A stretch of 63,812 nucleotides of DNA, the filler included, from Hausera hauseri (lineage: Eukaryota): the NCBI GenBank assembly GCA_046269625.1. It is 11 parts of 11 records of this genome, joined end to end, with 100 filler letters (N's around TTAATTAATTAA, not from the genome) between each part and the next. Parts side by side here need not be neighbours in the genome. Positions count along the whole stretch, not along the records: positions 1 to 12,138 come from JBJURY010048885.1; 10 more parts are not named here. One strand, written 5' to 3'. Below the pieces are notes generated by a model. It was not told the DNA's origin and made no database searches. It was given only the letters and a program-made list of their open reading frames with translations. The translations under genes and the position numbers were made by a program. Shown here piece by piece: positions 1 to 63,812 of the stretch (position 1 is its first letter; every line of letters starts with the position of its first letter).

Positions 1-93
1 GATTTTTTGATTTTTTGATTCAGATTTTTGGGTAATTAAGAGATCCTAACAAAAGTACCTATTGTTAAGATAAATTAAATTCTATTTCAGCTA

Positions 94-1185
94 TTGTTAC
101 TTGCCCATGATACGAGTCCGATAAGAGAAATAGCCCGGACAATACTGGCTAAGGCAGCTGAGAATAAGAAAGGAAGAAACGAAACAGTAAGAATAACGTT
201 AAATGAAGGAAACCAAGACATGAGGGTCATTAGAATGAATGAAGCTGATGATATACAAACATTACGAGAAAAGATTGAAGAATTGGAACCGTTTTACAAG
301 GAAAAAGTATACGGATTAAGTTTCTATGGACGAACGTTATATACTTATGATAAGTTACTAAGAATTGGATGTAGAACTGAAAATTATAATCCAATTATAA
401 CAGACATACACCCCGATGCAAGAGCAGAAACAACGATAGATAACATAATGAGGGAACTGGAACCTCAAGAGGTCGAAGAGCAACTATTAGGTGATACACA
501 GGATGTTACGGGACGAACAGAAGCCCGAAGAAGAGGAAGGTCAAGAGGAACAAAAATAAGTGATATTCGAAACAGGAAGAATCGGAATGAAGAAATCGTG
601 CGACGTTTATTATTGGCAGGGACGGATACGACGCCAGAATCTATAGATATAGATCCATTGTTAAGAACTCTATTAGCCAAATTACACACGTCATTTGCAT
701 CGTTTGACATGCAAATGGCAATTTCTGACAAACTGTTTCAGACGTTACGTAACGGTATGTTAAAAATTAGTAGGCAATTTTATGAAAATATTGGCGAGGA
801 ACGAATCAATGAATTACACGAGCAAGACATACTAGAAAAGATATTTGCTACAGGAATCACACAAGAGAAAGTAGTAACGGCTACCGCTTACTTATTATAT
901 ACGGTAATCGTTATTAATTATCAGACACAAAATGTTGAGGAAATCGAGAGGAACATCAAGGTAACGGTGAAAGTTTTACGTGATACTTTGGGAAATTGGG
1001 TACAATGTAGAGGCAGATGGATACCAAGCCTAATGAATGGCAGACTAAGACCTGAGGGAGGATCATATGAAAGATCTATCATAACACAATCTAGTGCCAT
1101 TAGACAGGCTCTAGGTGGAATATCATTTATGGAAATATTACAATTATTATTAATAGCATCCATCTGTATGCCTAAAGCTATGGGA
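94..1185 (+). pseudogene. Retroelement polyprotein segment: ubiquitin-like domain (about 181-410), helical region, internal signal peptide
   Basis: ETVRITL...IQTLREKIEEL...LSFYGRTLYTYDKLLRIGC fits a beta-grasp/ubiquitin pattern; hydrophobic ILQLLLIASICMPKAMG directly precedes the glycoprotein. Confidence 0.6.
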
Positions 1186-3000
1186 ATAGTAGACTATGAT
1201 TGTTCGAAGCCCAAAGAAGGGCAGAAGTACTCATTAGTCTATCTAGAAAATGTCCGGAAGCCGATCCAGAACAACTTACTACGACTGGCGTTCACCTCTA
1301 TTGGGTATATTAAGAACAGAAGTTTATTAAAGTTAAAATTAAGAAAGGTTATGTGGAGAAATCGTTCTTTTTGTTTCACTCTGCATATTATTCGGGAAAT
1401 TCTGCCATTATTGAACCAACAACGCCTTTTGAACCAATAATAATATCACGAGTAGAGTGCCAAGATGCTTTTAAAATTGAAGTCATAACAATACAGAACG
1501 CCCAGATACAAGCAGTACGACGGAAGATAAAGTATACTCAAATCTTCCGAGTAGGAAGAATCGACAAAACGATAGAAGGCACTTGTAAAGAAGTAGATTA
1601 CAATGTCGGAGGTACCATCGCTCCAAGAACAGTAGATATCGAAAATTACCAAGTTCAATTAAAAGAGTACGAAAACTATTTGACTCACAGACTAAACTCA
1701 TGACGACAATGAGTGAATGCGAATGAGAGTGGTAAATGTGACACTGGAGAGTCAAAGATGACTTGGGAAATATCTTCAAACCGATGTCACTTGACTTTAT
1801 TAAAAGAAAGGAAATTCAATAAAACGGTAGGAGAGATAGATGAAAAAGAAACTACAACCTATAAGGAAGGAGTTAAAGAAGTGAAAATAACAAATGTTGC
1901 GACAGTCGTGTACTCAGAAAACCCGGAGGAAATGATGCGTTTTAAAATTATGGGACCAAGCAATAAATGTGACGAAGAAATGTCTAAGACCAACTATAAA
2001 GGGATATATCTCTCACCCAAGGAGGTAGCACAGACTAAGACAAAAGTGGATAAGAAAGATATTAAATTAACACAATATTTTGATAACAAGATCGACTTTT
2101 TAATTAATTACGTCAGAAAAGAAATTCGAAGTCTAGAGAGAAATAATATTAAATGAATGCAAGTTAAATTACGAAATAATTCGTAATAAGATGGCTTTAA
2201 TAATAACAAACCCAGATATGGTAGCACCAGTGATGCCATTCGGCGATGGAGTAATCGGAAGAGTGATGAGCGAAGTATTAATAACTATTGAATGTAAAAG
2301 GATAGAAGTGTCTATTAGAGAAACTAAAGAGTGCACTTCAGAATTACCGGTTATCTACAATTCGGAACCCCGTTACGTAATGCCAGTAACACGAATATTA
2401 CTAGACTCCAATGCAAAACCTACGAAACTGGATAATTGCACTTTTAATATGTCGCTAATGTTCAAATTGGATGATAAGTGTATCAAGATGCCGAAAAAAG
2501 AATTGCTGCCGAAACCTGAAACATTAACTTTGATCAATTTACAAAGAAATCAAAGGTTTGAACCACTCACGGGCATATCGCAAGGAGGAATTTACACACA
2601 ACAAAACTTGGAAGATTATCGAAGAATGTTATTGTTTTCTCAGCAAATACAACGTTTAATAACTGAATTAACAAGAAGGGTAATGTGGGACGGAGAAGGA
2701 TCACCACATTGGGAAAATCTGATGGGAAAGGATTATTTGAAGAAAGTAACAAGAAACGTAATGGAAAAGATGTGGGGAAAGTTTTTATATTTCGGCCAGG
2801 CGGCCTCTGGATTTTTAGAAATATACTTTATTATCAGTGCCTTACGAACTATATTTACTGCCCTCGGTAAAGCTTATGGAATCCATGCAGCAATTGGATG
2901 CTCATGGAAAATCCTCATAGCCATAATACCGGCAGTAGCCAGTTGCTTTTTAGCAAATCACCATGCGAAATGGAAAAGGAAAATACTTAAGGAAAAGAAT
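1186..3000 (+). pseudogene. env: Chuvirus (Jingchuvirales)-like envelope glycoprotein, split by a frameshift near 1248 and by stops
   Basis: Motifs IVDYDC..KYSL..LE.C; YFDNKIDF; NPDMVAP..G..GRVMSEVLITIEC..IEV..ET.EC.SELPV.Y...YVMPVTRILL; GGIYTQQNLEDYR; WGKFLYFGQAASG..TM..AYGIHAAIGCSW match the chuvirus G pattern as I recall it. Confidence 0.82.
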
Positions 3001-3363
3001 CACGATACTGAAAATAATTCACCGTATAGCACCTTAAATAATAGAGATGACTTAAATCCAAACCCTAAGAATGATAGATATATAAATCGAATTAAACGGT
3101 TTTCCTGGAAACCCCGAAGGCAGAAATATAAACAAAGACTAATTGCCGACTTACCGCAATTAGATCTCGCGAATGAATACCAAGGGCACGTATACATTGA
3201 TCAGCCTTTAGTAAATCCCTCTGCCCCTCAATATCTGAGACATAGTGGAATGTACCTCACATACCAAGTATTACAAATGAAACAGGCCTATGAAGAAGAT
3301 CCTGTATTACATAATCATGAACCTACGTGTAAAACAAACAATAAAGACAAAACCCAGTCTATT

Positions 3364-3700
3364 ATAAGACCGGAGATAGATATTAAAGTGAATGGATATC
3401 CATTAACCGCGCTAATAGATACAGGATCAATAACCACCATCATGGGACAAAGTCAATTACCTAAAGAGCTAATGAAGAAGTTGCGTAAGGCAAAGAAACC
3501 GCTGGTTAATATTGGAGCCTTTGGCACTAAAGAAATAAAAATGGTTCTCGATGCCATAATCAAGATATGCGACCAGACAATAAAACATGATTAGAATAGC
3601 CAAGAACCTAACCAATAAAATATTGATAGGATGTGACGTACTACAACAGTTAAGTGATGTATATATTAATGTTAAAACCGGTCAACTTAAAACGTTCAAT
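3364..3700 (+). pseudogene. Retroviral-type aspartic protease, in frame with the glycoprotein tail
   Basis: RPEIDIKVNGYPLTALIDTGS (Asp codon 3418-3420) lies inside ORF 2191..3594; ILIGCD motif follows after a frameshift. Confidence 0.9.
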
Positions 3701-4199
3701 AAAGATCGATATGGAGGATCAGTTTCAATAATCAAGGATGTCATAATTCCTCCTCGTTCGGAAATAATAGTATCTGGTAGAATAAAGAATAAATCACTGG
3801 CGAATTGCATGCACTTCGAACCCTTTCCTCAAGTGATGAAAAAACACGACATCCTAGTCGCTCCACAAGTGGATAGAATAAGACAAGGAAGAATTTATTT
3901 GAGGATCTGTAACGCTGGAACGAAAAAAAAAACGATTAAGAAAAAATACTTGACTTGGAAAGATAACAACAATTGAAGAAACACCGAAGGAAGTGATCAA
4001 TTCAATCATCACAGATGTGGAGAAGATTGAGAAAATGATGGTAAAAAAATTAAAGAAAGAAGTAAACCAAAACTAGAGAGAAAAGAAAGCCGGCAACATC
4101 AATTGGGAAGAAAGATTAGGTGTTTGTAAGACCCTAATTAAGAAAGAGAAATATATGTTTATCCAACTGTTATAAAAGAATGATAACCGATTAGCGTGG

Positions 4200-5520
4200 A
4201 ATGATTATGACTTAGGGACGATGAATGCGATACAACACGTCATCAAATTAAAAGACGGACAAGAAAAGCCGATAAAGAAACGACCTTATAGACTAGCATA
4301 CGATAAAAAGGAAGAAGCACGAGAAATTATAAAATAAATGCGAGAAAAGAAAGTAATACGGCCCAGTTGTTCTCCTTGGACAGCACCAGTAGTGATGGTC
4401 AAGAAAAAGGATGGCACCATGAGATTCTGCATATATTATAGAGCATTGAACGAAATAACGGAGACCGATACATACCCATTGCCAAAGATTGAGGAAATAT
4501 TATATAAATTACATGGATCAACAATATTTACCACTATTGATATACAGAAAGGATATTGGCAGGTAGAAGTAAAAGAAGACAAACCGAAAACGGCTTTTTC
4601 AGTAGGTGCAGGATTATGGGAATTCAATATGATGCCGTTTGGATTAAAGAACGGGCCGCCAACTTTTCAAAGAGGAACACAATTACTACTTTTAGACGCA
4701 TCCCATGCTATTGTATATATCGATGACGTGATAGTAGCATCATCGAATTTTCAACAACATTTGAAGGATTTACAAGATCTATTCGACAGATGCGAAATAA
4801 TGGGTTTAAAATTAAATCTCAGGAAGTGCACACTTAATCAAACTGAAGTTGATTTTCTTGGACATCGAGTTGATAGGCATGGCGTCAGACCACAAAAAAG
4901 ACTACTAGGAAAAATCCAAGATTTTCCAAAGCCCACTACTGTTAAAGAATTGCGACGATTTCTCGGACTTGCGAATTATTGTAGAAAATTTATAAAGGAT
5001 TTTAGTAAAATAACTAAACCGCTTTACGAGCTATTATACGCAGACATAGAAAAGGTAATATGGACAAACGATTTCCAGAATCCGTTTGAAAATTTGAAAG
5101 AAAAATGATAAAACGCCCCTATCTTAATTTATTCGGACATGACTAAGCCATTTATATTAACAACAGATGCAAGTGACTATGGAGTAAGAGCAGTTCTATC
5201 ACAAAAAGAAAAGGATGGTGAGGAACATCCAATTGCATATGCATCAAGAAAATTAAATAAGCACCAGAAAAAGTATGCCGTTATCGAAAAAGAATTATTA
5301 GCAGTAATATTCGCATTAGATGTATTTTCACCTTATATCAGTGAGAAGAAACCTTTAGTAATATACACAAATCATCGACTGTTACAATGGCTGAAAATGC
5401 ATGAAAATCCCAACAGTAGATTATTACGATGACTTTAAAACTTCAGCCCTATACATTAGACTTTCAATATAAGCCTGGCACGCGAAATGCGAACGCTGAT
5501 TACTTATCGAGAATGCCGCA
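4200..5520 (+). pseudogene. pol: Reverse transcriptase and RNase H (Ty3/Gypsy)
   Basis: SPWTAPVVMVKKKDG, MPFGLKNGPPTFQR, YIDD, LTTDASDYGV, YASRKL, EKELLA, NADYLSR. Confidence 0.95.
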
Positions 5521-5789
5521 GGAACAAAAGGAACGAAAAAAGTAGTAGCAGCTGTATGAAGCATGGACGAATCCGTAGAAAAGATAAGAGAATCAAAGGG
5601 AAGATGAAGAAATAAAAATGATCAGAAATTATATTCAAAGTATAATTATACCAAAGAATAGAGAGCTAGCTCGTCATTTAGCCCCATTCAGTGAAGCTTA
5701 CAAATCAAAAAACGGATTTCTGTATTATATTCATCAGAATGGACTCGCACTAGTAATTCCAAAAAAATAGAGCAGTCTTACTAACCCAG

Positions 5790-6800
5790 TACCACGACGG
5801 ATTATTAGGCGGACACCAGTCAGTAAAAAAAACGATAAATAAGCTGAGAAGAAAATACTTTTGGTCAACCATGACAAAGGATGTTCAAGACTGGTGCGAT
5901 AGCTGCAAATTATGCGCTACCTGGAAGAATACCGGATCTAAGTTTAAAGCCCCTCTGAAAGTATGGGGCAATCCCCCGGTTCCATTTGAATTTACTGCAA
6001 TGGATACAACTGGACCATTACCACTAACTAGAAATGGAAATCGATACATTTTTGTATTTATAGACTATTTTACTCGATGGGTCGCAATCGCACGAAAAAT
6101 TTGTAGAAAATATTGTATTTAATTATGGAGCTCCAAGGATCCTATTAACAGACCAGGCGTCGAATTTAACCGGCAGTGTGATGCAAGCGATATACGAGAT
6201 TATGAGTATACTAAAGTTGCGGTCAACACCCGCTCATCCGGAAAATAATGGAATGGTGGAAAGATGCATCGGTGACTTGAAGAATAAGTTACAAATGGTC
6301 GTCGGTACTAGGCAAGATGATTGGGACGAATACATTAACACTTGTGTATTCGTAAATCGAACGTCAGTACATGAGGCCACAAAAAAGACTCCATTCTATT
6401 TGATGTATTTAAGAGATGCTAGACTACCCATTGACTTGGATTTCAACGTAAGGCCCACATCCCACTTAATGGAGGTGGAAAAATACAAACAACTAATGCA
6501 AGAGCGATTACAGTTAGCATATAAGATAGTAAAGGATAATCAAAAAGATTATAAGACAACTTATAAAAAGTATAATGACAAAAAAACTAACCAACTGACC
6601 ATTAAAGTAGGAGATTCGATCATGTTATATACTCCACTAAATAAAAAGGGAAAAACATCCAAATCGGATAGACCATATAAAGGACCATACGCAGTAGAAA
6701 AAGTAGATCTACCCAACGTTTGTCTCAAAAAAGATAATACTAATCTTAAAGTTCATGTTAACAGATGGAAACCCGCGCCTAAGGAGAGCGAATTAAGAAA
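5790..6800 (+). pseudogene. Integrase (HHCC zinc finger, DDE core, GPY motif)
   Basis: YHDGLLGGH...CDSCKLC; AMDTTGP; LTDQASN; NGMVERC; YKGPY...VHVNRWKP. Confidence 0.93.
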
Positions 6801-6859
6801 CAATGAACAAGAACTTATACGGGCCATCAACTATAAGAAGAGAGCTAAGAAAATTTCGA

Positions 6860-8180
6860 ATTACGATGTATTCAAATACTTCTGCCTATGGGTTCTAATA
6901 AGCATGCCAGGCCTGTGAGCTTAGACAATAAAACCACTTGACCCATGGATGAGAACATTCCCTTCAAACGAAACCTTAGAAAATAGCCTAATGATGAGTA
7001 TTTATCATGAGATAACTTATACAAGAAAAAAAGCAAAAATGTATAAGATTTATAGTATTCGAAAGATTACCCAATCAGTACATGATAGGAATCCAAGTAA
7101 TCCACGAGCATGATCATGAGCGAAGCTCGAAGCAACGAAAGTATGATTGCGGCAATACTTATTGGAGGAACACGACGGAATGTATAGTAGACGATTCCGG
7201 CAATTATCTTGTATATTACACTCTGATCAAGAGACATAAGAATCGCTACCAATGGCAATATACCAAGTGCTGAGGTATTATACATGTCTCTAATAGACGA
7301 ATAATTAACACAACCAGATTAGGCGAAATAATACTGACCCAACTTACCATTAAGCCGATAGGATTTAAAAGAAGACGAAGTTGTATAGAAATTAGAACAA
7401 TGATAGAGCTAGAAGAAAATAGAGCTATAAGTATAAGGCTCACGGAGGTAAAAAAGAAACAAAAGATGCCAACAAAATGTCGGCTGACTGACAGATACCT
7501 TCGAGTTTGCTGTAAAGTCGTACGAGAAAGAACCTACGGTGTACAAATTATGTTAATACGAAAGGATTCAGAGAATGTCAAGACTTTGACTTATCAAGGG
7601 CCTAGAACATGTTCCATTTAAAAATGTCGATGAGTATGACGACTACCAGCAACTAAGTGTCACGACACCTCTTGTGAGTCCTACACGACCTAATGAAATA
7701 AAGATTAATTTCGGAGAAATGGCTGTTCTTATGTGACCCCACGTTTTACCCTATCGTCACAAACGTTCAGTTTTAAAAAATGTCACAGTATCTTCCACAC
7801 TTACTTCCTTAGTTGTAGCTATCCCACCTGATTTACATTTCTATAAAATTAAACTTATCTGCAAGCTAGGTCAAAAGATAATAGGAAAAGGAATAATCAC
7901 ACCAGACGATACAATAGTGCCGTATGCCGACCTAAGTCCCAATACAAAATATACGGTTACATTACAACTATATGGCGACGATAATACGATGATTGCAACT
8001 AAATCGTTAACAGCTTCGACGAGAGCCCGAATACAGCAAAAACCAGAAAATGGGAAAATAAGTACAAGCTCAAACCAAAAGATACAACCACCAAAAGCAA
8101 GTTATACTTATTCTCGAATAGAATTAATCATAATAACGGTAGCATGTCCTATAAATTTGTTAATTGTACTGACACGATAA
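6860..8180 (+). pseudogene. Degenerate post-integrase membrane protein with furin site, FN3-like domain and TM helix
   Basis: Hydrophobic FKYFCLWVLISMPG at the integrase end; RHKR at 7755-7766 in frame with LKNVTVSSTLTSLVV...LSPNTKYTVTL and a C-terminal IELIIITVACPINLLIVL. Confidence 0.5.
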
Positions 8181-8383
8181 AAATAATCATTTATGTACGA
8201 AAACATCAGAGATCAAATTGGATTAGGATAGATATGCGACATATACCGAATATCCTAGATACCAATAATCCAAGTTAATGGTGGCTGTTTCGGATTGTAG
8301 CTGCAATCCGAATAGTTAAGATAACTAAACGCCATCTAGTTATCTACGCATTAAATAAAAGTAAAACCACAACGATTACCAAT

Positions 8384-9682
8384 ATGTGCATGATAACCGT
8401 TGTGTTGAAAATAAGTATTCTGTACATACCGATAGTGACGTTATTTCATATAGTCTCCGCTTCAACATTCAACCAAATCCAGTCTATTACAAGATCCAAA
8501 TATTGGTATAATAACGCCAAGAACCACATTATTAACGCCAGTTCAGCCAATCAATACTATGTGACCCATAACGATTATACAATCAGTTTAAATTATCCAC
8601 AAACTCAGCAGATACCCAATAATTTAAAAGGGTACAGCATGGCGAACAGATCTTTGGCGATACTTTAGATGACAAAGGCAACCTCATTATATCATACTGA
8701 CATTATTCTCCTCCCTGATAAATATTACTCATTAAACATTTACTGTATAGTTGGACAGTTCCATATTAAAACTACAGCCAGACAAACCTCAATAAAAGGA
8801 GATCTTATCAATATGAATCCAGAGCATGGATTAGCATTCAATTATTCGTTTATTCAAAACAATACCATAAAGATACGATCTCTTACTAATCAAATAATAA
8901 TGGCAATCGAGGTCATTAGGAACAAAAAGTTTCAACCTAGAGTGCCCAATGGAAAATGTTTTGATCTTCCCGAACCCGATTGTGTCAAAAATAAAACTAT
9001 ATCTTATCGACAAATACAGCAGATTACCGATACTGACCTGGTCATAGCCGCTGTTAATTTAGCCTATTACCATAGGAATCAACTCCAGCCTATCGAGATA
9101 TCTATTATAACTCCCTCTGGAAACACCTTATTCTACACGATCGTCTACCCCAGACAGCGTATCAATAATTTTGATAGCCATATAACTGGCCTAACGGAAG
9201 CAAACATCAGCAATCAGATGGACCCTACAGAAATAATCACGGACAAGATAGTCATTGGAACCGATGTAATTGAATTGATAATAAATCACTTTAGGTGCCC
9301 CATCAGACGGATAGCCGGAGTTCGTAATATTTTATATCACGAAGAGGTTATTCGAAAATACCAGCTATCAATCAATACATACAAAGAACTTGCGAAGAAG
9401 TTCTACGATTCAAAAGGATTCCCTTTACGAAGTACTGCCTTGGTACAATGCTACCAGGCCATCTATTGACAATCAAAATGGAACGATGAATTAATCCTAG
9501 AAGATGCGGCACCCGATAGTGTGCGAAAAGCACAGATAACATCAACATGTGGACGAAAAAGAAAGCTCCAAGTCGACGAAACCGTGATTATAGACGATGA
9601 AATATATGAACCAGAATCTATCCGTTATAAATCCAGATCATCAGATAAAGTTATTCATGTACCATTGCCTTTCGATCAATGA
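8384..9682 (+). pseudogene. Accessory ORF ending in a degenerate DEDDh (REX/ISG20-like) exonuclease fold
   Basis: 8384..8668 and 8669..9469 share a frame, separated by one TAG; IEISIITPSGNTLFYTIVYPRQRINNFDSHITGLTEANI and KIVIG resemble the REX-family core, but the DxE motif is replaced by AAVNL. Confidence 0.5.
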
Positions 9683-9717
9683 CAAATTTGGGACAACTTC
9701 TTCAGTCCCCCATGAAT

Positions 9718-10528
9718 TGTGCAGATGTCGATTGACTTAATTTCCCATTTCTCGAATTAGCAAACTAATTTAGCAAATGTCGATTGACTTAATTTCCCAT
9801 TTCTCGAATTAGCAAACTAATTTTACAAATGTCGATTGACTTAATTTCCCATTTCTCGAATTAGCAAACTAATTTAGCAGCTGTCAACTAATAAATGTTA
9901 ACAATAAACGTAAACCAGTGTGGTAATAAAGACTAGGAACTATTCCTTTCGGTAACATGTGATTTCAATATGGTATTGTGTGAATTTTTATTCGAATATT
10001 GTAATATATTTTTTGGTTGCTGTTATTTATTATTGGATATGTGTAAACATAAAATAGTATATATACAACAGTGTTTGAGCATTGATCATGAATTTGTTAA
10101 CCTGTCTCTTCTCAGATGACTACACGTAAGTGTCATTCTTTTGTGGCTGATTGTTAACATCTTTGTTTACGATGCATTTTGTATTTAGGCGTATTTTTTG
10201 TATAGTTGAAGAGTTCATTTTTATTCTACACGTAAATAATTTGAATAACTAAGTAAAGCTGCTAAGTAAAATCAGAGATTCGTCGTCCAGGTTAACCCGG
10301 CCTGACGACAGCCAGTTTAAAATAAGTAATCCCATAAGATATTAAACCGTAATAAATAAGTAAAATATAGATCACTGTCCCCTACACATTACCGACATAT
10401 AAGTAGGTAAAGTAGTAAGACTCATTATCTGCTATCCTTACGTCCGAACGCATAACTACGTCATTTGTTCTCCTCGTTAGCCAATTTACAGTGAAGCCTC
10501 TCCCATTGTGGTTAAGGAGGACTGAACA
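9718..10528 (+). repeat. Putative LTR (single copy in this contig)
   Basis: Non-coding stretch between the last ORF and the PBS, bounded by TGT...ACA; contains AATAAA; 5' boundary uncertain. Confidence 0.55.
9725..9880. repeat. 52-bp tandem repeat, 3 near-identical copies
   Basis: ATGTCGATTGACTTAATTTCCCATTTCTCGAATTAGCAAACTAATT... starts at 9725, 9777 and 9829. Confidence 0.97.
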
Positions 10529-10531
10529 AAC

Positions 10532-10549
10532 TGGTGCCGTTACTTGGGA
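10532..10549 (+). promoter_or_regulatory. Primer binding site, tRNA-His-like
   Basis: TGGTGCCGTTACTTGGGA lies 3 nt after ...GAACA and resembles the complement of the tRNA-His 3' end (TGGTGCCGTGAC...); it is just upstream of gag. Confidence 0.75.
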
Positions 10550-10652
10550 TAACTAGGCAAGAAACCTTTAGATAAGCATCTAGGCTACTAAAATTACGAC
10601 CAGAAGAGGAACACCGTATAGAGTAGAGACAGAAGACAACTTACCCTTTGGA

Positions 10653-12127
10653 TTGGAATTCTTAAACAACTTAAGTGAAGAAGAAGAAAACGGAATGGCC
10701 CAGAATGAGCATAACGTAGAACAGGTGATACAGTCGAAGGCCGACTTCACCTTACCCATGAAGAAGTTTTCAGGGAAAGAGGACGTACAAGATTTTATTA
10801 TGGAATACGAGGTATATTTAAAGAGTTTTGGATGGAATGACCAGCAAAGGATGGAAAGGTTACCTCTCCATATTAAAGAAACTGCATTAACGATTTACTT
10901 CCAAATGCCAGAAGAAGACAAAAAGGATTGGAAAACTGTCAAAGATAAGTTGCTTAAAAAGTTTTTAGTTGATCCCTCTGGAAAAGGAAAATAGAATAGT
11001 TTATAAGAAGAAGGCAGCAAAAAGATGAGACAGTCTAGGATTTTATTTGCGCATTGGAAAAGTTAGCCACAAGGGCTTACCCTGATGCAGTAATAAGAAG
11101 TAACGCACTGTTGGCTCAATTCCAATATGAGTTAGAAGGAAAGTTAAGAAGTATAATATTACAAGCTGACCCACCTACATTTCAAAAGGCAATAAGGAAA
11201 GCACAAAAAGCCGAACAGGACACCGAACTATATCGGTGGACAAAATCAAGAAATGATAATGGTAATTACGATAAACGATCGAATAATAGTACACAAAAGT
11301 ATTAGCGGTATAATAGAAACCGAAGCACTTCACAAACATCAGCTACAGAATCTGAGTCAGACATGAAAGAAAGTGAGGTTCAAATTAAAGAACGATAAAG
11401 AAAAGTCAAACTATGAAAAAGGGTCTACAAAAGATAGAAGGGCACTACCAAATATAGATTCGGAAGGAAGCTTAAAGTGTTTTAACTGTAATAAGTATGG
11501 CCACATAGCAAGGGCATGTAGGTCACACAAAAGAGAGTCCACAAAGTCAATAAAGGATTATACATCAGCTACGTCGGATTAATCATCCGATAAAGAACAT
11601 GAAACAGAAGATAGTGAAGAAGAAACAAAGAAAAAAGATAAAAAGAAAGAAAGTGTAAATTATGTTAATGAGATACTATCCCAACATATGAAAAAGAAGC
11701 TAGCTATAGAATTAAAAAACTATAAAATTCAACAGAAACGATTAAAAGAAAATAGTATTTATGCAACGGAAGAAAAGCCAAAAGGAGGAAAAGTACGACA
11801 AGGAAGAAAGAAGGGTAATAAAAAGATAACAGAAGAGGTGGAAAGCAGAGAAACTTCTGTGGAGAAAACCGATTTAGAACAAAAAAAAGGAGACGAAAGA
11901 AAATTGAATCTGGCAAGTCGACGTCGGAAGAAAGTAAAGGAAACGTGCTACCTACAAAAATTTTCGATGAAACCGTTATTGAACAAGTAATACATGATAT
12001 AGAAGTAGACTTAGATGCCGAGGATGATCTTATCCAAGCAGTGATTGCTATAGACCCCGAAAATATAATAGATGTGATTCAAGCGACAAGCACAATACTA
12101 CAATTAATAGACAATAAAGTGTTTTAG
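10653..12127 (+). pseudogene. gag: Gag (capsid plus CCHC nucleocapsid) with a charged C-terminal extension
   Basis: KFSGKEDVQDFIMEYE...W..VKDKLLKKF capsid pattern; CFNCNKYGHIARAC zinc knuckle; interrupted by stops and frameshifts. Confidence 0.9.
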
Positions 12128-12138
12128 TTTTTTAACAT

Positions 12139-24703: not shown

Positions 24704-27700
24704 TCCATGTCTAACTGCCTGATGGAGATTGATCTAACAGACTACATACCTCCCCCTATTACACAGATGGCAGAGCAGCTTTCTCTGCTTTCCATGAGGC
24801 TGAGGCCTGCTCTCAGGGAGGAAAGGCAGCTGTTGATTACTTGTGTAGATGGAAGAAGGATATTCCATATCTACCTCCAGTATGTATCCCGTATATCCAT
24901 TGGGATCCAGTTCCAGTAAGGAAATGTTTTCAGGATTCTCGACTTATTTGAAGTTATCGTATGACAGTAGGGCGCTAATTGCCCATCCATACAAGTTGTT
25001 GGCATCCAGGTATGATATATATATATGATGATTTCTTTGTTGAGTCGTATTCCGCCATATACTTGTTATTGGACTCACTACCGATGAATGGCCTGGCATA
25101 TTTCACCTCAAATGCCTCTCTCGATCATAAGGATCATATCATAATCCTTAATGATCAGCAGCCTAATACGAGTATAGCGCAGCATTGCTGCCCATCTCAT
25201 TCCTGGAGCTGTAGAGAAATGAGCAGGATCCAAAGCATGGCTCTTCATTGTAACATCCCTAAAACTCTCAAAGGCATCTGTCAGCAACAGCACGCCCGTC
25301 TTGAGGTAAATATCACTGTATTCCCCTATTGTCCCCAATTGCAATGCATGCCAGATTTTCTGGGCATGCTGGTAATCCATATCACTGATATCGCAAACAG
25401 AAAGGATATTGTAAAAGTCCTTATTGTCCGGCAATGGGGTTTCATCCAGTCTTTCCCATGAAGTTATATAATCATAAGGAAACACACCTTTCATCTTGAA
25501 TAGGTCAAATGCAGTGGGGAAGAACCGCTTCGTCTCCCTAAGTTCTTCTGCAGGGAGGTTAGTCACTAAACTGTCCAATAAAGACGACATGAAACAAAAA
25601 CTGTCTATAAAGCGAAGCCTGCTTTTGCCCACATGCTTGGTAAATGTGATATATTTTTCGTCACTGTTGGGGATCACATCTATATTACCACCAATGTTGC
25701 CTAATTCTCGGACTATGAAATGGGAATCATAGGCACTGAGATTATGGAAAACTACAGGCACATATGTGCATGTTTTGCAGCAAAGATTGCAGTTGTTGCA
25801 TGCTGCTCCTCGATATTCACCTGTAAAATGGCAGTGATCCTTGACTTTCCAATTTTCCTTCGTTAACGACGTGTCGCACAAGTAACATGCTGTTGCCTTG
25901 CGCCATTCTTCTGCTTGTTTCCACGACATTCTCATTTTATCCTTATGCTCCTGAAGCATGTTTTCAAGCTTATGAGCCATATATTCAAGTCGTTTTATGA
26001 AATGAGCTGCTTCACCTGGACCCCTGAATAGATGTGGTTTACTGTCCAGTCCTTGGGTATACACACAATACGATGAGAGCTCATGATATTGGTATGCCCT
26101 TGTGCTGATATATTGAGGACTGGCAGTGCAACTGTGAACTAGCCGGAGAATAGCTTCAAAGTTACAATAGATAACTATTGGAACATTGATCTTCTTCTCG
26201 AATTCCTTGAATTCAATATGGTCCTCCTTGGGAAATTCTGGTTTTACACAGTAATTGTTGTTGCAGTTTATTTTATGCTCTGCAAGCTTGTCCACTGCTG
26301 CATCAACTCTGGAATGAGACAGATATCGCTTACATATTTCTATTTGTTCATGATGATTCGTAATTTCGGATCTGACTAGACGCTCAAAGTTCTTGATCCA
26401 AACATAATGTTTCTTTCTTCCATCGTCGAGTAGGATCATATCCCTATTATCTTCTAATTTATTATCATACATCTGCAAGGGATAAAATTTATCATCCTCA
26501 TCCAATCCAAAGATGTTGTCTGATACTTTGTTGAGTCGATTGAACTTCTTAATTTCATGTAAGGATGAAGGGAATGTGGTACACTGGAAGTCATAGTTGG
26601 GCTGAACATCTTTATATTGCCATACTCGTGAAGCATTATGTTGATCAGGCACGAGTTTTGATGGAATGGCATACATTAAACACATGTTGTCATTATTATG
26701 GAAATTCATACATGCTTTTTTATTAGCGATCCAATTAGTGGGTTGAATATATGAACTAACCCGCATGGAGGAGAATCTATGCACATACAGCAGCAATCTC
26801 GTGATAATTGCTGGAGTCCATCCGCTCTTCTTACTTTGGCACTCATCAGCTTCACAGATCAGCTTTGCATGCTCTTCCTACAGCCATTCTACTCTATTGG
26901 TGGCTTTAAAAATTGGTCTATTTTTGGTCTTGAAGGGCCCTTTGGACTTTTCGCCATCAACATTAATGTATGTGGCCTCAAGTTTCATATAAGCCTTAAT
27001 AGCCTTAAGCTCAGCTATGTTGTCCTGAAGAATCACCTCTGTTTCTTCTTCTGTGTACTTCAGGAACTCCTTCATGGTTGTTTGTCCAGTTGCATCAATG
27101 CTATATTTGCGCCATTTTTTCTTTAATGTTGAAACAACAACTGGCCGCTGTCTTTGACTCTTTGATGCAGCGGGTACGCGTGATGCGCGTGATGCGTCCG
27201 ATGCGCATTTTAGTCCTGCATCTGACTGTGCAACAGGTTGTGGTATTGCAGGCTGTGATACTGCAGGCTGTGGTACTGCAGGCTGCGGTAATGGCTTATG
27301 TTCATTAAAGACGATCTTCTTTGACTTTGATGCGAAGTCAGTAGAATGATGTTTGTGATCTTAATAAAACTGTATGTATTCTCCATCACATACAGCCTCA
27401 CATCCTGGGCATATATAATAGATGATCCTATTGAATTTGTATCCATAATAGCTCCTCATGGTATTGTTGCAATTCTGAGGGTTGTGTATTGCACATGTGC
27501 AATACACATATGAACTGCATCCTTGATTTTCCTTTGGCATGAAAGTCGTTACTGGCATATTGGTACTGAATATTTGTTTTTTCGACTTGGTGAAGGGAAT
27601 CAAGTGCTCTTTATAGACATTGTAAAAGTCTTCATAATTTGTTTGGCACACTACCTCACATGTACGAAATATATAATACTAAACCCTGTTGTAAATATGG

Positions 27701-35751: not shown

Positions 35752-36029
35752 AGAACTATATATGAGGCGCTGCATTAAGTGGATGATCGTTCGGCATGTG
35801 TCGAATGTAAGTGCTGTTGTGTTGTCTCATTTTTTTTTGTTTTGCTGCCTCTATTTTGCATGCCTGACCACTTCTACCGACTAATTCCTGATTTTCTTAC
35901 TGATAAAACAGTTGCTCTTAGTGCTACTCTTGAAGCGAAATAGGATTTTTTTGTTGTTTTTTTTCTTTTTTAGATTCTTGTTGACATATAACATATACGT
36001 GCACATACTTCCCCGAACGATTTTCGATA

Positions 36030-38057
36030 ATGACGCTGATACCTCCTGGAAGCATTTATTCTCTATTTTTTACTACGCTAACTCTGATCTTGTTAGCCGC
36101 GTCTGCTGCTGTCTTGCCTGATATTCATACTCATGGAAGTGCTGGAGGTGATAAAATACTTGAACACCGTTGCATTCATGACGAGGTGCAACGACAAACG
36201 TTGAAGCTGCACCCATTGTCTACCCCAAATCGAACCGATATTGTCAATGGGACGAAAAGGTCTTACTGGCCTGTACTGCTCACAACTCATAAGAAGACCA
36301 GAGTAGTGGATAATCAAACGGCTAAAATGTCCATGTTGATTGAAGAGCATGAACATTATACTACACTCATGGTACCACAAGACTACAAAGAAAAAAATGA
36401 ATTGTCGTCTGGTTCGTATGCCCCTATGAGGTTTGTATTTCTACATGACAATTTATATAACTCGAAATATTGTACAAACGAGTCCGGGAGCGCGACGTAC
36501 TTCGTGGGAGGAGAGGCTAAAAAGTGCGTCGATTACTACGTTTTCACCGACGCAAAACGTGACAATCTAATAAACCGTGTGCTTCCTGGTCTAGCTAGCT
36601 TCTTGTCTAATGCCCTAAGAGTACGACCTGTTGCTACTAATGTTGTTGTACCCAGCAACAACCCGTGTGGAACGGATTACACGACGCGCCCAGAAGACAC
36701 ATCACCAGGTGTACCCAATGCAGACTTTGTAATATATGTGACAGCTGCGCCTACCAGGGGTGCAGTTGCATGGGCGTCTTATTGTGCATTGGACAACAAT
36801 GGACGTCCTATAATTGGTCGGATTAATTTCTCACCTACTTGGTTGGGATTTCCAGCAAATGACAAGCGAGAGCTAGACTCAATGATTCGAGTTGGTGCGC
36901 ACGAGCTGATTCATGCGCTAGGCTTCACGTGGGGTTACATGGCATCCAAGTATTTTGGGCCGCCAAGATCCCCTTATCTGCAGTCGAGGCGACGAGGGAA
37001 AGAAGTGTGGCTTTTCACTGGGCCAAACGCACTGGCTCAGGCTCGTACATTTTACAACTGCTCGACGTTGGACGGTATTGAATTGGAGGACGAAGGAGGA
37101 GCTGGCACTGCCTGGCACCATTGGGAAAGAAGAGATCATTTGGAAGACATTATGGCTGGAATTACTGGGGTGAAAAAGTCTCTTAGCAGTCAAACGTTGG
37201 GATTTCTAGCCGATTCTGGAAAGTACCAAGTAAATTACGATGCTGCGGAACCAATAGCATGGGGTTATCAAGCTGGTTGCGGTTTCCTACTACAGCCATG
37301 TAATACTACTGCTGGGGGTGCTGGTGAGCTGTTTTGTTTTGATGCTTCAGGTACTATTACAAGCTGTACATATGACAGGAATTCCTTTGGTACTTGTGAG
37401 ACTGGTATTTGGGATGATCCGATTCCTATCTGGGGACAATATTTTCCTGGACAACCAAAGTTAGGTGGTAATTCGTATTTTATGGACTATTGTCCACTGG
37501 TTGGTGGTTACTCTAGCGCGTTGTGTTCTGATGCGAGTAGAGCAACTACTAATGTAGTCTCAGCTCAGTATTTTGGCGATGGTGGTCGTTGTCTTGTGAC
37601 TTCCGCTGGTCTCATTAAAAAGAATAATGCATATGGCGGTAAAAACCCTGGCCCTGCACGTTGTATGAAAGTTCGTTGTACCGGTTCTATGGTTGAGTTT
37701 AGGATCGGTTCGAATCCGACCTGGATCAGCTGTCCTGCTGATGGCTCAGAGAAAATAATGGACATGTCCCCTTATGGCTACAGAGGTACGGTTACATGCC
37801 CCAAGTCATATCTTCTGTGTCCGTTGTCAACTGCCACCACCGTTAGCACAAATACGTCAACAAAAAATTCAACAACGAACTCAACAACAAATTCAACAAC
37901 AACATCAACAACAAACTCAACAACAAATTCAACAACAACAACATCAACGACGTCAACAACTCCGTCAGGAGCGAGCGCCATCGGTACTTTTCACGACATA
38001 ATTATACGCGGCGCAATTGGTTGTTTCATTATTATTCTGGTCATCATTATTGGATAA
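36030..38057 (+). CDS. GP63: GP63 / leishmanolysin (peptidase M8) surface metalloprotease, kinetoplastid type
   Basis: Signal peptide, HRCIHD propeptide, ADFVIYV, HELIHALGF, LEDEGGAGT..HWERR, DIMAG Met-turn, Cys-rich C domains, Thr/Asn stalk, hydrophobic GPI-like tail; no introns; polypyrimidine-AG upstream. Confidence 0.95.
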   Translation: MTLIPPGSIYSLFFTTLTLILLAASAAVLPDIHTHGSAGGDKILEHRCIHDEVQRQTLKLHPLSTPNRTDIVNGTKRSYWPVLLTTHKKTRVVDNQTAKMSMLIEEHEHYTTLMVPQDYKEKNELSSGSYAPMRFVFLHDNLYNSKYCTNESGSATYFVGGEAKKCVDYYVFTDAKRDNLINRVLPGLASFLSNALRVRPVATNVVVPSNNPCGTDYTTRPEDTSPGVPNADFVIYVTAAPTRGAVAWASYCALDNNGRPIIGRINFSPTWLGFPANDKRELDSMIRVGAHELIHALGFTWGYMASKYFGPPRSPYLQSRRRGKEVWLFTGPNALAQARTFYNCSTLDGIELEDEGGAGTAWHHWERRDHLEDIMAGITGVKKSLSSQTLGFLADSGKYQVNYDAAEPIAWGYQAGCGFLLQPCNTTAGGAGELFCFDASGTITSCTYDRNSFGTCETGIWDDPIPIWGQYFPGQPKLGGNSYFMDYCPLVGGYSSALCSDASRATTNVVSAQYFGDGGRCLVTSAGLIKKNNAYGGKNPGPARCMKVRCTGSMVEFRIGSNPTWISCPADGSEKIMDMSPYGYRGTVTCPKSYLLCPLSTATTVSTNTSTKNSTTNSTTNSTTTSTTNSTTNSTTTTSTTSTTPSGASAIGTFHDIIIRGAIGCFIIILVIIIG

Positions 38058-39212: not shown

Positions 39213-42200
39213 TTACAATAATGTCACATGTTTATGAGGTAGTGTCTGAATTCCGTCTTGAACAATGTGCCTCTTGTCATCGAACTAATCGAGACTTTAT
39301 TTCCGCATCGCAGCTGTGGCAATCGAATGTTCCCAGGACTGGATCCTCTTCATCTCGCTGACGATGTCAGTTTGTTCCCTCAACACTCAAAATCTACAAA
39401 GCCTATATCTTTATCTAACGTGGACCTTTGAACTCCCTTATCCCGCTTCTTTACCAAACCACTTACGTCGATGGCGTACATTTTTGATTTCAACACAACG
39501 AAACGGGTGATGATCTTCCCATTCACCTCGTCTTTAAACTTCCCGAGGACCTTGTTGACGGTTGAGTAATTTGCATGATCCTGCGGATAGTCCGAGGTAT
39601 TCATATACTGCGCCAATTTTGCATGCTTTTTAAAGACATCATCTGTGTAGATCTGGTATATGAAACTGTCCGTGTCTATGTACATTAGCTGGAGCTCCTT
39701 GAATGTGGGGACCATGATTTAATGAAAGTCATACATCAAGGTCTTGGATAGATCCAATATGGATATGCCCACATATATAGGCTTGTTGAACTCAAGTGAT
39801 GTCTTGAGCATATGGATGCTCACCACGTTCTCTGTGTAGATTGTGCTGCTGTGGAAGCTGGGCTTAGTGATGAGTTTCTTTGCCCTCTTCCAGTCACATA
39901 GCAGCTTAATGTTTATCCCGTTCCGGATATTTTCCATAGTTTTGCCAAAGACCGGGTTGTTGTAAAGTTTGAATTGGTCCTTTTCAAACTCGTTCTTGGC
40001 ATTGGCCCTCAACTGGGTATTGAGGTCTATGTAGGGCTGCAGCCATATTGACTGGCTGAACTGCAGGGCCCGATAAATCCTGATGACTCCGAGTCCATAT
40101 GGGATGGCCTGTTGGAGATTTATGTAGTGGACAACATACCTCTCCCTGTTTTCGACGTGACAGAGCAGCTTCTTGTGCTTTCCATGGGGCGAAGGCCTGC
40201 TCTCCGGCAGAAATGGCAGCTGGTCATACCTTCTGTGGATGATATGTAGGTATTCCACATCCACCTCCATTATATAGCCCGTATCTCCAGTGGGATGTAG
40301 GTCCAATATTGGGATGTCTTCAGGATTCTCGACCCATTTAAAGTTATCATGGGGTAATGGGTTGCTCATTGCCCATCCATAAAAGTTGTTGGCATCCAGA
40401 TATGATATATGAGGATTCCTTTGATGGATCATAATCTGCCATGTATTTGTTGTTGGCCTCACTGTACTTGTGAATGGCCTGGCATATTCTACCCCTGATG
40501 CCTCTCTCTACCATAGGGACCATATTGTAATCCTTCAATATCTGGTGCATTATGCCGGTATAGCGCAGCATCGCCGCCCAGCTCATTCCTAGAGCTGTAA
40601 AGAAATGGGCTAAATCTAACTTGTGGCTCTTAAGGGTTACATCACGGAAGCTTTCAAAGACATCTGTATGCAGCAGCACATCTGTGAGGAGATAGATATT
40701 ACTGTATTCCCCTATTGTCATGCACTTGGAGGTTTGCCATACTCTTTGAGCATTCTCATAGCCAGCATCGCTAACATAACTGGATGACAACTGACTATAA
40801 AAGTCCTCCTTGACCGGTAATGCTTTTTTATTCAGTGTTTCCCATAAGGTTATATAGTCATAGAGGAACACGTCTTTCCTCTTGACGAGGTCCAATGCAG
40901 TGGTGAAGAACCGCTTCGTCTCCTTGAGTTCTTCTGCTGGAAGGTTCTTCACTAAACTATCCAGTGACGAGCTCATGAAGCAGAAGATGTCTATGAATCG
41001 GAGCCTGATGCAGCCCATATGCTTAGTGAAGGTGATATATTTTTCCTCACTGTTTGGAATGACATCGATATTCCCCTCAATATTACCCAGTTCCCGAACA
41101 ATGAAGTGGCAATCATAACCACTGAGATTGTGGAACACTACAGGCACATATGTGCATGTTTTGCAACGTAGATTGAAGTTGTTGCCTGCCGCACCTCGAT
41201 ATTTGCCTGTAAAATGGCAATGATCCCTGACTTTACAATTATCCTTGGTGAAGGACTTGTAGCACAAGTAACATGTGGTTGCCTTGCGCCATTTATCTTC
41301 TTGCTGTTTCGACATGCTCATTGTATCTATATGCTGCTGAAGCATGTTTTCAAGCCTATGAGCCATGTCTTCTAATCTCTTCATAAAATGTGCTGCTGCG
41401 TCTGGCCGTCTAAATAGAAATGGTTCACTGTCCAGTCCTTTGGCATGCATACAATATGATGGGAGTTCATGATGTTGGTATTCCGTTGTGCTGCTATCTT
41501 GAGGATTAGGGCTGCAGCTGTGAACTGGGTTGAGGATGGCCTGAAAATCACAATAGACGACAATCGGCACCTTCTGCATCTTCTCGAACTCCTTGAATTC
41601 CAGGTAATCCTCCTGGGAGAATTCTGCTAGGATGCAATAGTTTGTATTACAGTAGGTTTTGTGCTCTACCAGCTTTTCTGCGGCTGTCGCCCCATTAAAA
41701 TGGGTAAAGCAACTCTTGTATATTTCCTGCCTTGATTTATGTTTGGATATTTGGGATTCTACGAAACGCTCAAAATTCTTGATCCAGATGAAGTGCCTGG
41801 TTTCTCAATCATCTGGCAGGAGTAGATCTCTATGATCCTCCACTTCCTCCTTGCAGACATGTAATAGATAAAATTTGTCGTCCCCCAATCCGACGATGTT
41901 AATGGAGATGTTGTTCACGTTTTCAAATTTCACGACTACATCTAGGCTCGGCGGGAATGAAATACAGCTGAAGTCGTATGTGTACCGCACTTTGTCATAT
42001 ATCCAAACTAGGGAAGCATTAAGTTGGTCTTGGACTAGTTTTGATAAAATGGCATAGATGAAACACATGTTGCCATTATTATGGACATTGACACATGCCT
42101 TTTTCTTAACTATCAATTCAGGAAGCGGTATGTAGGACCTGGCTGTCATGGGAGAATACTTGTGCACATGCACAAGTAACCCCTTTATTGTTGCTAAAGT

Positions 42201-61039: not shown

Positions 61040-63812
61040 TACGCCCAATTTTTATTCCGCATTACCCACATATGTTTATCATCATTGCATGATAAAGCGA
61101 CGTTTGAATATAATACCGTATAGAGCTGGTGCTCAATCGATCGGGTGATCGTTTGTGACACAAAGGCCTTTGATTGTCCTCCTCCGTCTCCTCATTCTTC
61201 ATAGACACGGCGATAATCACCGTGGTCGATTTCCGTCTGGGCCAGCTGAACGCCTTTTGTGAGCATTTTTTGGTCTACATTCCGTCAGGAGACTGTAGCA
61301 CCTTGGGCGTAGGAATACTTATTCTCGGTACTGAACACGGCCTTCGCTTTTATCCTTGAAGCAGTCGATTTTGTTCGAGATGGCGCTGCTATACAGCGGA
61401 TGATTCTGCAGGTAATTGGACCTGTCCAGTAATCCATTTGCCATCATTTACCGCAGCATCTGGTCGCGATTGACGTTTTTCAGCTGAAGTAAAAAGCTGC
61501 CTCTGTTCTCATCTCACAGCCGTCGAATATTTGCCGGTTACGTGCCAAGCCGCAATACTGGAGCTCGTATATTCGCAACTTATTCAGGTCCAGTACCACT
61601 TGTCCGATGTAGCTCGGTCGGTCCAGTATGACTTCTTCCCTGTTTAACAGCACGGCAATCAATCCATTGGCAATGTGCATTGACCGCCTGGACTGAGCCT
61701 TACTGGTGTACATAACCATCCGCTTTTTGTTGTTACATAGGCGCACATTGAGTCGCTTTTTGAGGTTCTCTACTGTTTTGCCGCAGAGAGAATTATTTTT
61801 CAACTTGCAGTAATCTTTTTCGAACTTTGTACAAGCTGCGGCTCGTTTTTCTGAATTTCCGTCAATGTATGCATTAAATATCGGCTGATTGAATTTGATT
61901 GCGCGATGCATCTGTGTGACGCGTACATCGAGCTGCATGTAAAACTGCAGTAGACGCCAATGAATCACGTAATTCGATTTGGTTTCATGCGTCATGAGCA
62001 GTTTCTTTACTTTTGATTTGGGTAGACATTGGCTCATTGGTACTACGGGTAATTCGTCCAGAGCGTCATGCACTTCATCTGGTACCAAAAGATCGACTTC
62101 CATTAGGTAGCTGACTGAGCTGCTTTCTGTCGTGTTTGCTGCTGGCAGACTGTCCAGCAATGTATTCAATTCTTGTTTGTCCATCATCCATTCAAATGAA
62201 CCGTACGAAAGGGTTGCGAAAGCGCTTAGCCGTACAGGTTATTAATATCGTTGTACAACATTGAAGTTGTTTCATAGTTATCACTGGTTACGTGATGCTT
62301 GTTGACAAATGTCATGCCGCTGCGAATACCAACATCAAACTCCCGGTACATTTCCGGGTTTTGCAGCAGCTCAATTGCCCTGTCCAGCGACATTCGTTCC
62401 GATGTCCAACTCATCCCCGGTATGGAGTAAAATTTTAGCGGCTCCAACCTATCTTCCTCCAACGCCTTAGCAGGAAATATCTGAAACACATCGGCTAAAA
62501 AGTATACGTCCAGTTTCAGGTACTGGAGCATGTACTCCAACATGTTTCTGCAGACGAGCTTTGTCTAAGCTCCCTGTGTTCTGTGGTACTCGTCCTCTGT
62601 GATTCCGACCCATTGTTGCGGCAATTTATCTGTTGTCTGAAGCCACTCGTACGACACAGCAACATCATATGGAAATATGCCTTTTCTGCGTGCAATATGC
62701 GCAGGGAACTGCGTGAGCGTTATCAGCACATCCGGCAATGCATTTACCAGCTTTCCTAGAGACTCATTGAGGAACTGTATTAAGTCAAGAAACCGTACCT
62801 GGTACCGGTTTATGCGTGCCGATAGGGACAAGTACTTCTCCATAGTTTTTGGAATTATAGAAAGTTCTCAGTGCGTAAATCCGCTTATGGCCCATTTCAA
62901 AATATGGTGACAATTATAACCTCAAAAATTATGAAATACCACCGGTAGGAATGGCCGCATACACTCTTCCGTATTGCATGAATTACATGCTTCTCCAGGA
63001 TATCGACCGGTAAAATAGTCGTGGTCCAGTACGAGCCATTCCCGTGCATCAAACGGTAATATTTTGTAGCACAGGTAACATTCATCTGTGACTGAAAACG
63101 TCATGCGTTTATCTTCATCTGTCCACATGAAAGGTTTATTGCTATTTCCACTATACCAGGGTGCAACTTCCGTTTCTACTATTGTTTCCAACATGTGCAG
63201 GAAATAGCGTACACAGTTCCAGCCATGAAAAACGTAATATTGCGGTTGACCTGCGGCTTTTATTGGGACAACTGACATACCGACGACGATTGGAACATGT
63301 TTCTGGTCATACATGTTCTGCCGTGGTAAGATATCTTCGATGTCGACATACACTACATATGCCGGGCTGTCTGTTTTTGACCAATCAGTGAACCTCAGTT
63401 CCTGTTTGAGGGACATGACGTACATTGTGGTTCCCGAGGAATTGTGTCTGCACAGAATCACATGTTTCTCCCATGTTGTTTCCCATCTGAATTCGTGCGG
63501 AGATACGGGACACAATTTACACCGTATACGCTTTTTTATAAATTGGTCATGTTCCATGTTCAACAATCTGTCTAGATTTGTGATTGCAACGTAATGGAAT
63601 TTTTTCTTTTGCTCCAATAACAACAAATTTATTGGGTTGCCATTTGGGTTCCGACTATGGTAAATTATATTCACATGGAGATTTTTGGAAATTTCTTCAT
63701 CTGCCGGTATTTCTACGATTGTGTTGTACCGGAACACGTTGATTGCCAGTGTCGGATTACGCTATTCAAATGTCGGAATGGATTTCGGTTTCATCGGCAT
63801 ACAGCATCTATC
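61040..63812 (-). pseudogene. Polinton pPolB from a more distant family, disrupted
   Basis: FHYVAI, DHDYFTGRYPGEACNSCN, VVFHN, FLD, KGIFPYD, YLKLDV, DINNLYG, KLKNNSLCGKTVEN, KCYS, DDK. Confidence 0.92.

Follow-up and report, generated by a model that had tools for sequence, protein, structure and literature searches.

A decayed Ty3/gypsy-type element of Hausera hauseri carries a probable second membrane-protein gene behind its integrase

Env-bearing retrotransposons are normally drawn with one env, and viral entry that is divided between two components is known from herpesviruses (gB with gD/gH-gL) and paramyxoviruses (F with H/HN/G). A gag-env-pol gene order with an HSV/gB-type env has already been published for Nematoda, Bryozoa and Platyhelminthes (Chary and Hayashi, PMC13524379). 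As described in the main text of that paper, these errantiviruses have a Ty3/gypsy pol order, a gB/chuvirus-type env before pol and a tRNA primer site, like the element that we describe here. They are annotated with three ORFs and a single env; in contrast, the Hausera element has ~2.8 kb of coding sequence after the integrase. The same main text makes no mention of “fibronectin”, “exonuclease” or “accessory”, the post-pol slot is not looked at there, and the discussion treats cell-to-cell passage of env-bearing retrotransposons of non-insect animals as an open question.

Other described elements resemble ours in part. Bdelloid rotifer LTR retrotransposons with a non-env ORF3 (Rodriguez et al., PMC5408684) have post-pol ORFs, small TM/RxxR proteins and DEDD-family exonucleases, as does the element here. 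In the accessible sections of that paper, the rotifer exonucleases are of the DEDDy type and keep their catalytic residues, unlike the exonuclease-like gene of our element (gene Y, below), which is of the DEDDh type and lacks the motif-I acids; the same sections describe neither an FN3/Ig protein nor a gB env before pol combined with a second membrane protein. A chuvirus-like glycoprotein of the same Pfam family also occurs in BEL/Pao and gypsy elements (Dezordi et al., PMC7642597), which differ in retrotransposon family or gene order; the accessible part of that source does not speak of a second membrane protein. Across the literature covered, which took in few subscription papers, we found no report of an FN3 protein or a second glycoprotein in an LTR element, and none beside a gB-type env.

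The window analysed here is a stretch of 63,812 nt in which 11 Hausera hauseri records are joined by N spacers; the finding is confined to the first record, 1-12138 (JBJURY010048885.1). The element in bases 1-12138 is of Ty3/gypsy type and decayed, and a gB/chuvirus-type glycoprotein lies ahead of its pol. On the + strand, Pfam matches run from a Monjiviricetes-type fusion glycoprotein through protease, RT and RNase H to integrase, with gag-type matches near the far end. The gB/chuvirus-type (Monjiviricetes) fusion glycoprotein gene (1135..2955, +), which is broken across frames 1/3/3/1, matches PF24664 on three ORFs (E 5e-4, 6.5e-3 and 2.7e-51); by hydropathy, it has one internal signal-like segment (1135-1167) and, at the C-terminal end, two hydrophobic segments (2812-2844, 2899-2955). 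Pol (3340..6771, +) contains several stops and frame changes, and has the order PR-RT-RH-IN with a GPY/F integrase tail (GPY at 6682) that is a trait of Ty3/gypsy elements (Metaviridae). Its Pfam matches are to RVP (1.3e-6), RVT_1 (9.1e-30), RT_RNaseH (2.6e-34) and Integrase_H2C2 (1.4e-19); it was also aligned by tblastn with P0007-P0009, and three distant pol proteins align to the element at ~38-41% over RT-RH. Positions 2137-3594 form a single stop-free ORF that holds the fusogen ectodomain and C-terminus, two hydrophobic segments and the protease, and hence is an env-pol fusion.

Env lies directly ahead of pol, a trait of GAG-ENV-POL errantiviruses of the HSV/gB type, and the placement of gag before env presupposes a permuted or tandem record. 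Gag (10584-12127, +) has a zf-CCHC match (E 2.7e-6) and weak Ty3_capsid and Retrotrans_gag matches in Pfam. Upstream of it is a primer-binding site (10532..10543, +), complementary at 11 of 12 bases to the 3' end of tRNA-His, as compared with the His_GUG 12-mer that PMC13524379 lists in its supplement; a CA just before this site may mark the LTR end. No second LTR was found within record 1-12138, which suggests that the record is a permuted or tandem piece of the element, and there is no clear polypurine tract in 9400-10540. Since stops and frame changes interrupt every gene, the record represents either a decayed copy or an imperfect consensus.

Several observations on the records stand apart from our main subject. 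Record 1 has a T-rich run at either end (1-78; 12127-12138), inside the gag-to-env region and with no overlap between the two ends; judged from these ends, it may represent an element in permuted or tandem form. Just upstream of the fusogen signal segment, and in frame with it, lies a weak Bcl-2-like domain (640-1110, +, frame 1) with a Pfam Bcl-2 E of 0.0028, which falls below the cut-off, and a match to BOK (E 0.05) over ~100 residues including BH1/BH2-like parts; going by its sequence, this is possibly an anti-apoptotic accessory protein. In other records of the window, ORFs at 25108-26877, 39719-41804, 62922-63761 (-) match endonuclease VII and protein-primed-type DNA polymerase B. We take these ORFs to be Polinton-like, and two of the records that carry them are 75-92% alike in places. 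A 690-codon ORF at 35985-38057 (+) contains a leishmanolysin (M8) domain (E 4.1e-94) and ends in a 12-base tandem repeat (37836-37979).

Behind the integrase, stop-poor tracks span 6868-8177 across three frames, well beyond chance length. On the strand of the element, these tracks together cover the region and read, in order, as a signal-like stretch, a Cys-bearing part of ~280 codons, RHKR, a seven-stranded β-sandwich, a stalk and a strong TM segment; we refer to the corresponding gene and protein as X. The integrase frame (6064-6915) is closed by stops at 6916 and 6922 directly after the signal-like stretch. Frame 1 is then open to 7110, frame 2 over 7016-7618 (with a stop at 7271) and frame 3 over 7590-8177 (with a stop at 7734). 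The gene is thus broken by four stops and two frame changes ahead of the TM segment, and the stop-free ORF 7737-8177 by itself holds RHKR, the sandwich and the TM segment together. A pair of tracks, each 190 codons or longer and holding no more than one stop, arose in 0/6000 simulations, and the openness of the frame-2 track was reached in 0/9000 shuffles. In base composition the region resembles pol, being rich in A. Searches around it showed neither terminal repeats nor the ends of a nested element, and there was no second copy of it within the window. Minus-strand ORFs at 6872-7533 (64-95 aa) were set aside as shadows of the A-rich strand, similar ones of which overlie gag, env and pol.

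The coding signal is uneven across these tracks. An element-trained codon model backs frame 3 at 7620-8177 (+0.069 per codon, against +0.077 for the integrase control) but does not back the open frames at 6925-7110 (-0.056) or 7115-7590 (-0.073). Over 7016-7618, G is more frequent at codon position 2 than at position 1, unlike in the G, RT and IN controls. The model also fails over 8351-8650, which is coding from 8390 on according to a 53%-identical relative. Because it misses this homology-proven coding stretch of gene Y, the model is a weak one, and its verdict on the N-terminal tracks is a caution rather than a refutation.

The signal-peptide-like hydrophobic stretch (6868..6915, +) follows a basic run at the end of the integrase frame and reaches a Kyte-Doolittle 11-mer value of 2.05; in the 1479 aa of the element's cytosolic tracks a peak that high occurs once, and in 6238 aa of five distant pol proteins twice. 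Stops separate it from the ectodomain tracks, and both the signal and the TM assignments rest on hydropathy. The putative N-terminal ectodomain (6925..7733, +), of ~280 codons by the stop map, has four sequons across its tracks, and the frame-2 track at 7016-7618 accounts for 9 Cys and 2 sequons; this part matched no Pfam family. RHKR (7755..7766, +), a furin-type site followed by SV at which the motif suggests cleavage, directly precedes the β-sandwich, with the stop at 7734 just upstream. On its own, an R-x-K/R-R match counts for little (P=0.195 in 440 aa, or 0.015 with the next two residues constrained, post hoc), and no fusion-peptide-like run follows RHKR. Beyond the sandwich are a Ser/Thr/Lys/Pro-rich stalk (8022-8117, +) and the TM segment (8118-8174, +), after which frame 3 stops at 8178. 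With a KD19 of 2.36, this segment ranks first among the 10 peaks listed across all three + frames of the record. Right after it, frame 2 (open at 8003-8275) is hydrophobic and then basic, and so contains a possible but uncertain basic cytoplasmic tail (8180..8275, +), which the codon model does not support. On hydropathy, the order of signal, basic site, sandwich, stalk, TM segment and basic run fits a type I topology. The case for X is weakest where the N-terminal part is joined to the FN3 part.

An earlier note on this DNA had described a signal-like end of the integrase frame, RHKR/SV, an FN3-like pattern and a TM segment. All four features are present in the sequence, with the FN3-like stretch at 7779-8021, but they do not share one open frame, and the gene is broken in several places. 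The note had named the lack of an Ig-like or FN3 match as grounds for rejection. On this point the methods diverge: AF2, Foldseek, VIA and ESM agree on an Ig-like sandwich, but Pfam fn3 (PF00041) gave no match at E up to 10.

The domain at 7767..8021 (+) is predicted to be a seven-stranded Ig-like β-sandwich, probably FN3-like. The hallmarks of FN3 are an L-x-P-x-T-x-Y tyrosine-corner motif, a Tyr in strand C and a conserved Trp in strand B. The motif is present at 7932-7964, as is the strand-C Tyr, and the usual strand-B Trp is missing, there being no Trp in ORF 7737-8177. The FN3 E-F motif, a pattern picked after it had been seen, has a single occurrence among the 127,620 six-frame residues of the window; 98/200,000 shuffles of the ORF contain it. 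For 7737-8177, AF2 run on the single sequence gives a model (pLDDT 56.8, pTM 0.49; two of five models agree) with seven strands in FN3 order (A-B-E / C'-C-F-G), then a disordered stalk. Foldseek on the PDB returned 28 FN3 domains or FN3-derived binders and 11 glycoside hydrolases among the 39 rows listed, classes that were read from the row titles; the best E was 9.4e-4, the only match at E <= 0.001. In VIA, other Ig-like sandwiches match as well as or better than FN3: the top rows are glycoside-hydrolase Ig-like domains (Z 9.5, rmsd 3.6, 99 aligned; Z 10.0, rmsd 2.3, 85 aligned), and fibronectin scores Z 8.5 (rmsd 2.6, 83 aligned) against a stated background of Z 7-8. ESM features place fn3 in 9/10 best rows (0.87-0.90), which at a recognition of 2143 (<2300) and with 156/256 features shared is a lead only. 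A viral fold library gave 0 matches at E up to 0.001, and its rows were mostly FN3/Ig or unnamed. Together, the AF2 model, Foldseek, VIA at Z 8-10 and the ESM fn3 lead give the Ig-like fold moderate support. We conclude that an Ig-like sandwich is probable in the modelled C-terminus of X, and that FN3 is its likeliest subtype, although this is not proven.

Comparisons with known proteins add context. Like FN3 domains of animal receptor and adhesion proteins (contactin, CD45, CD148, tenascin), X has the strand order in its model, the tyrosine-corner motif and a membrane-proximal site; unlike them, it lacks the Trp and a Pfam fn3 match, and identity is only 10-24%. The best PDB sequence match for the FN3 ORF is a contactin-2 FN3 (E 0.8), and among proteins of 259-2000 aa 0/649 candidates were related to it. 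A search with the fusogen C-terminal region among proteins of 1253-3989 aa, seeking an intact polyprotein, gave 0/557. phmmer of frame 2 (7016-9679), a query of which the frame-3 FN3 ORF is not part, returned 6 matches from 1.84 billion representatives, none with its best stretch on X; in all six that stretch falls on the following gene, Y. X had no relative among the 11 proteins retrieved (best E 0.38), and scans of its pieces against Pfam, NCBIfam and PHROGs gave nothing meaningful. With the integrase ORF, 5/951 candidates among proteins of 498-2000 aa were related (26-34% identical). Four of the five stop 35-131 residues past GPY/F, without an extension; all five are too distant to count as family members.

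The earlier note had passed over the accessory gene that follows X. Gene Y (8384..9679, +, frame 2, with two stops) encodes a hydrophobic N-terminal helix, a cupin-like domain, an ISG20/REX4-like DEDDh fold and a basic C-terminal patch. It is 53% identical to an intact 447-aa relative, P0001 (phmmer, E 8.3e-139), the model of which matches ISG20 at VIA Z 17.5 (rmsd 2.6, 156 aligned) and cupins at ~10. RNase_T is found in 3/6 phmmer matches of the frame-2 query; another of the six, P0002 (a PKD-repeat protein), is probably spurious. In the alignment, the acidic motif-I residues are missing from Y and P0001 and present in P0003-P0005, which from their sequences appear to belong to the same two-domain (cupin + DEDDh) family with the catalytic site intact. 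The hydrophobic N-terminal helix is restricted to Y and P0001 among the six aligned proteins. The intact relative of Y shows that working accessory genes, Y at least, once occupied the space behind the integrase. Just 3' of Y, a 52-base unit is present in three tandem copies (9715-9885).

What is the nature of X? A class III-type fusogen gene already lies upstream of pol, and the post-integrase region is therefore a second, separate membrane-protein-like gene. We are fairly confident that 6868-8180 is a real second membrane-protein gene of the element, although the whole finding rests on one broken copy. The element is of a known kind, and X is probably its second type I membrane protein, with a function that we infer. 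The proposal of the earlier note, a separate attachment or adhesion-type protein in the slot normally used by env, stands as far as the upstream fusogen and the C-terminal Ig/FN3-like sandwich go; a receptor-binder role is not supported yet. An F-type (class I) or gB-type env was considered for X and rejected on the lack of a Pfam match, the β-sandwich after RHKR and the 117 residues to the TM segment.

Our main reading, to which we assign a probability of roughly 40%, is that 6868-8180 is a decayed type I glycoprotein gene of a gag-env-pol element, and that X travelled with the fusogen as an attachment helper. X would be made as the tail of a polyprotein, or from its own RNA. In the former case, the polyprotein would thread the ER membrane a second time at 6868, where an internal signal would send X into the ER and release it from the integrase. 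The element visibly uses membrane-threaded polyprotein logic, in the stop-free ORF that runs from fusogen to protease; against a fusion at this second point, integrase and X are separated by two stops, and the fusion is presumptive. A furin-like protease could then cut at RHKR, yielding an outer Cys-bearing subunit of ~280 residues and an FN3-stalk-TM anchor of ~150 residues. X would most likely share a membrane with the gB-type fusogen and enter particles as an attachment or tropism helper. FN3 folds are function-neutral, and the candidate binder would be the outer subunit rather than the FN3 domain. The closest functional analogy may be two-component viral entry, in which the fusogen is separate from another surface protein, but X has no sequence or fold link to the herpesvirus or paramyxovirus binders beyond unspecific Ig-like rows, one of them an alphaherpesvirus gC fragment in the viral fold library (E 0.016). 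Moreover, a helper is not obviously needed, because the HSV/gB-type elements described in PMC13524379 carry a single annotated env.

A close rival reading also takes X as a real gene belonging to the element, but has it modulate the host as an accessory protein. Displayed on the producer cell as a receptor-like decoy or an adhesion protein, it would have shed its furin-released outer part and stood outside the entry machinery. This reading competes because the record also bears a Bcl-2-like domain and the cupin + ISG20-like gene, and we regard it as nearly as likely as the main one. FN3/Ig decoys are known from large DNA viruses and furin-cut FN3 receptors from cells, and a furin site directly before a membrane-proximal sandwich would free the outer part. 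The weak Bcl-2-like domain and the ISG20-like pseudo-nuclease are cargo of a host-interaction type, and extra ORFs of rotifer LTR elements with a TM segment and RxxR are, in the accessible sections of the source, often not env (PMC5408684). However, X shows no match to a particular host receptor family, and within a polyprotein it would share membrane and timing with the fusogen, which would favour packaging.

It is unlikely, in our view, that the region is composite or foreign, stemming from an FN3-TM exon captured from the host, from a different element or from a chimeric join in the record, and was never one functional gene. The codon statistics of the N-terminal tracks do differ from those of the FN3 ORF, GC skew is negative at 7801-9300 (down to -0.21), unlike in pol, and a single copy in the window with a single LTR end leaves the element boundaries uncertain. 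Nonetheless, the tracks follow on one another gap-free on a single strand, all the way from integrase to gene Y; codon bias in the FN3 ORF is that of the element itself, and there are no flanking intron-like gaps or repeats. In addition, gene Y has an intact relative, and at least that cargo was once working.

X could also be a second fusogen, for example a class II-like one. Class II proteins have an Ig-like domain III before the stem and TM segment, ~400 residues after the signal. The ~415 codons from signal to TM segment in X, with an Ig-like last domain followed by stalk and TM, fit that layout, and the N-terminal part has 9 Cys. We nevertheless hold this to be improbable: no Pfam fusogen family matches at E up to 10, no fusogen is among the PDB fold matches listed, and RHKR is followed by no fusion-peptide-like run. 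To our knowledge, class II proteins have neither an FN3 motif nor a furin site ahead of their last domain. Finally, that all these features are chance patterns in non-coding AT-rich DNA is very improbable, since, weak as every single motif is and with no sequence search above a curated threshold, two such tracks arose in none of the 6000 simulations, frame 3 has codon bias, and the architecture is ordered and the fold methods agree.

We suggest, with considerable reservation, that a lineage of gag-env-pol Ty3/gypsy elements could have become a complex enveloped virus-like agent with a two-part entry apparatus and host-control genes. The entry apparatus would consist of a class III fusogen and a separate furin-processed, FN3-anchored attachment protein off the end of the pol polyprotein, and the host-control genes would be the Bcl-2-like protein and the cupin/pseudo-exonuclease. 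In the table of PMC13524379, six of ten bryozoan rows have LTRs, with 1.1-2.2 kb from the pol stop to the downstream LTR by our own arithmetic; eight of nine flatworm rows have no LTR within 3 kb, and all 6 Schmidtea rows (<=215 copies) are without an LTR call. Among the 15 nematode rows examined, of 36, nine have LTRs and the gaps are 0.2-2.1 kb. Since nematode rows show similar gaps, long pol-to-LTR gaps are places to look rather than proof of genes; bryozoan and flatworm gag-env-pol elements may carry cargo of the X/Y type, perhaps in intact form, that is present but unannotated. A second surface protein, if true, would point to a separable tropism determinant, and would mean that the unannotated post-pol space in gag-env-pol elements holds genes.
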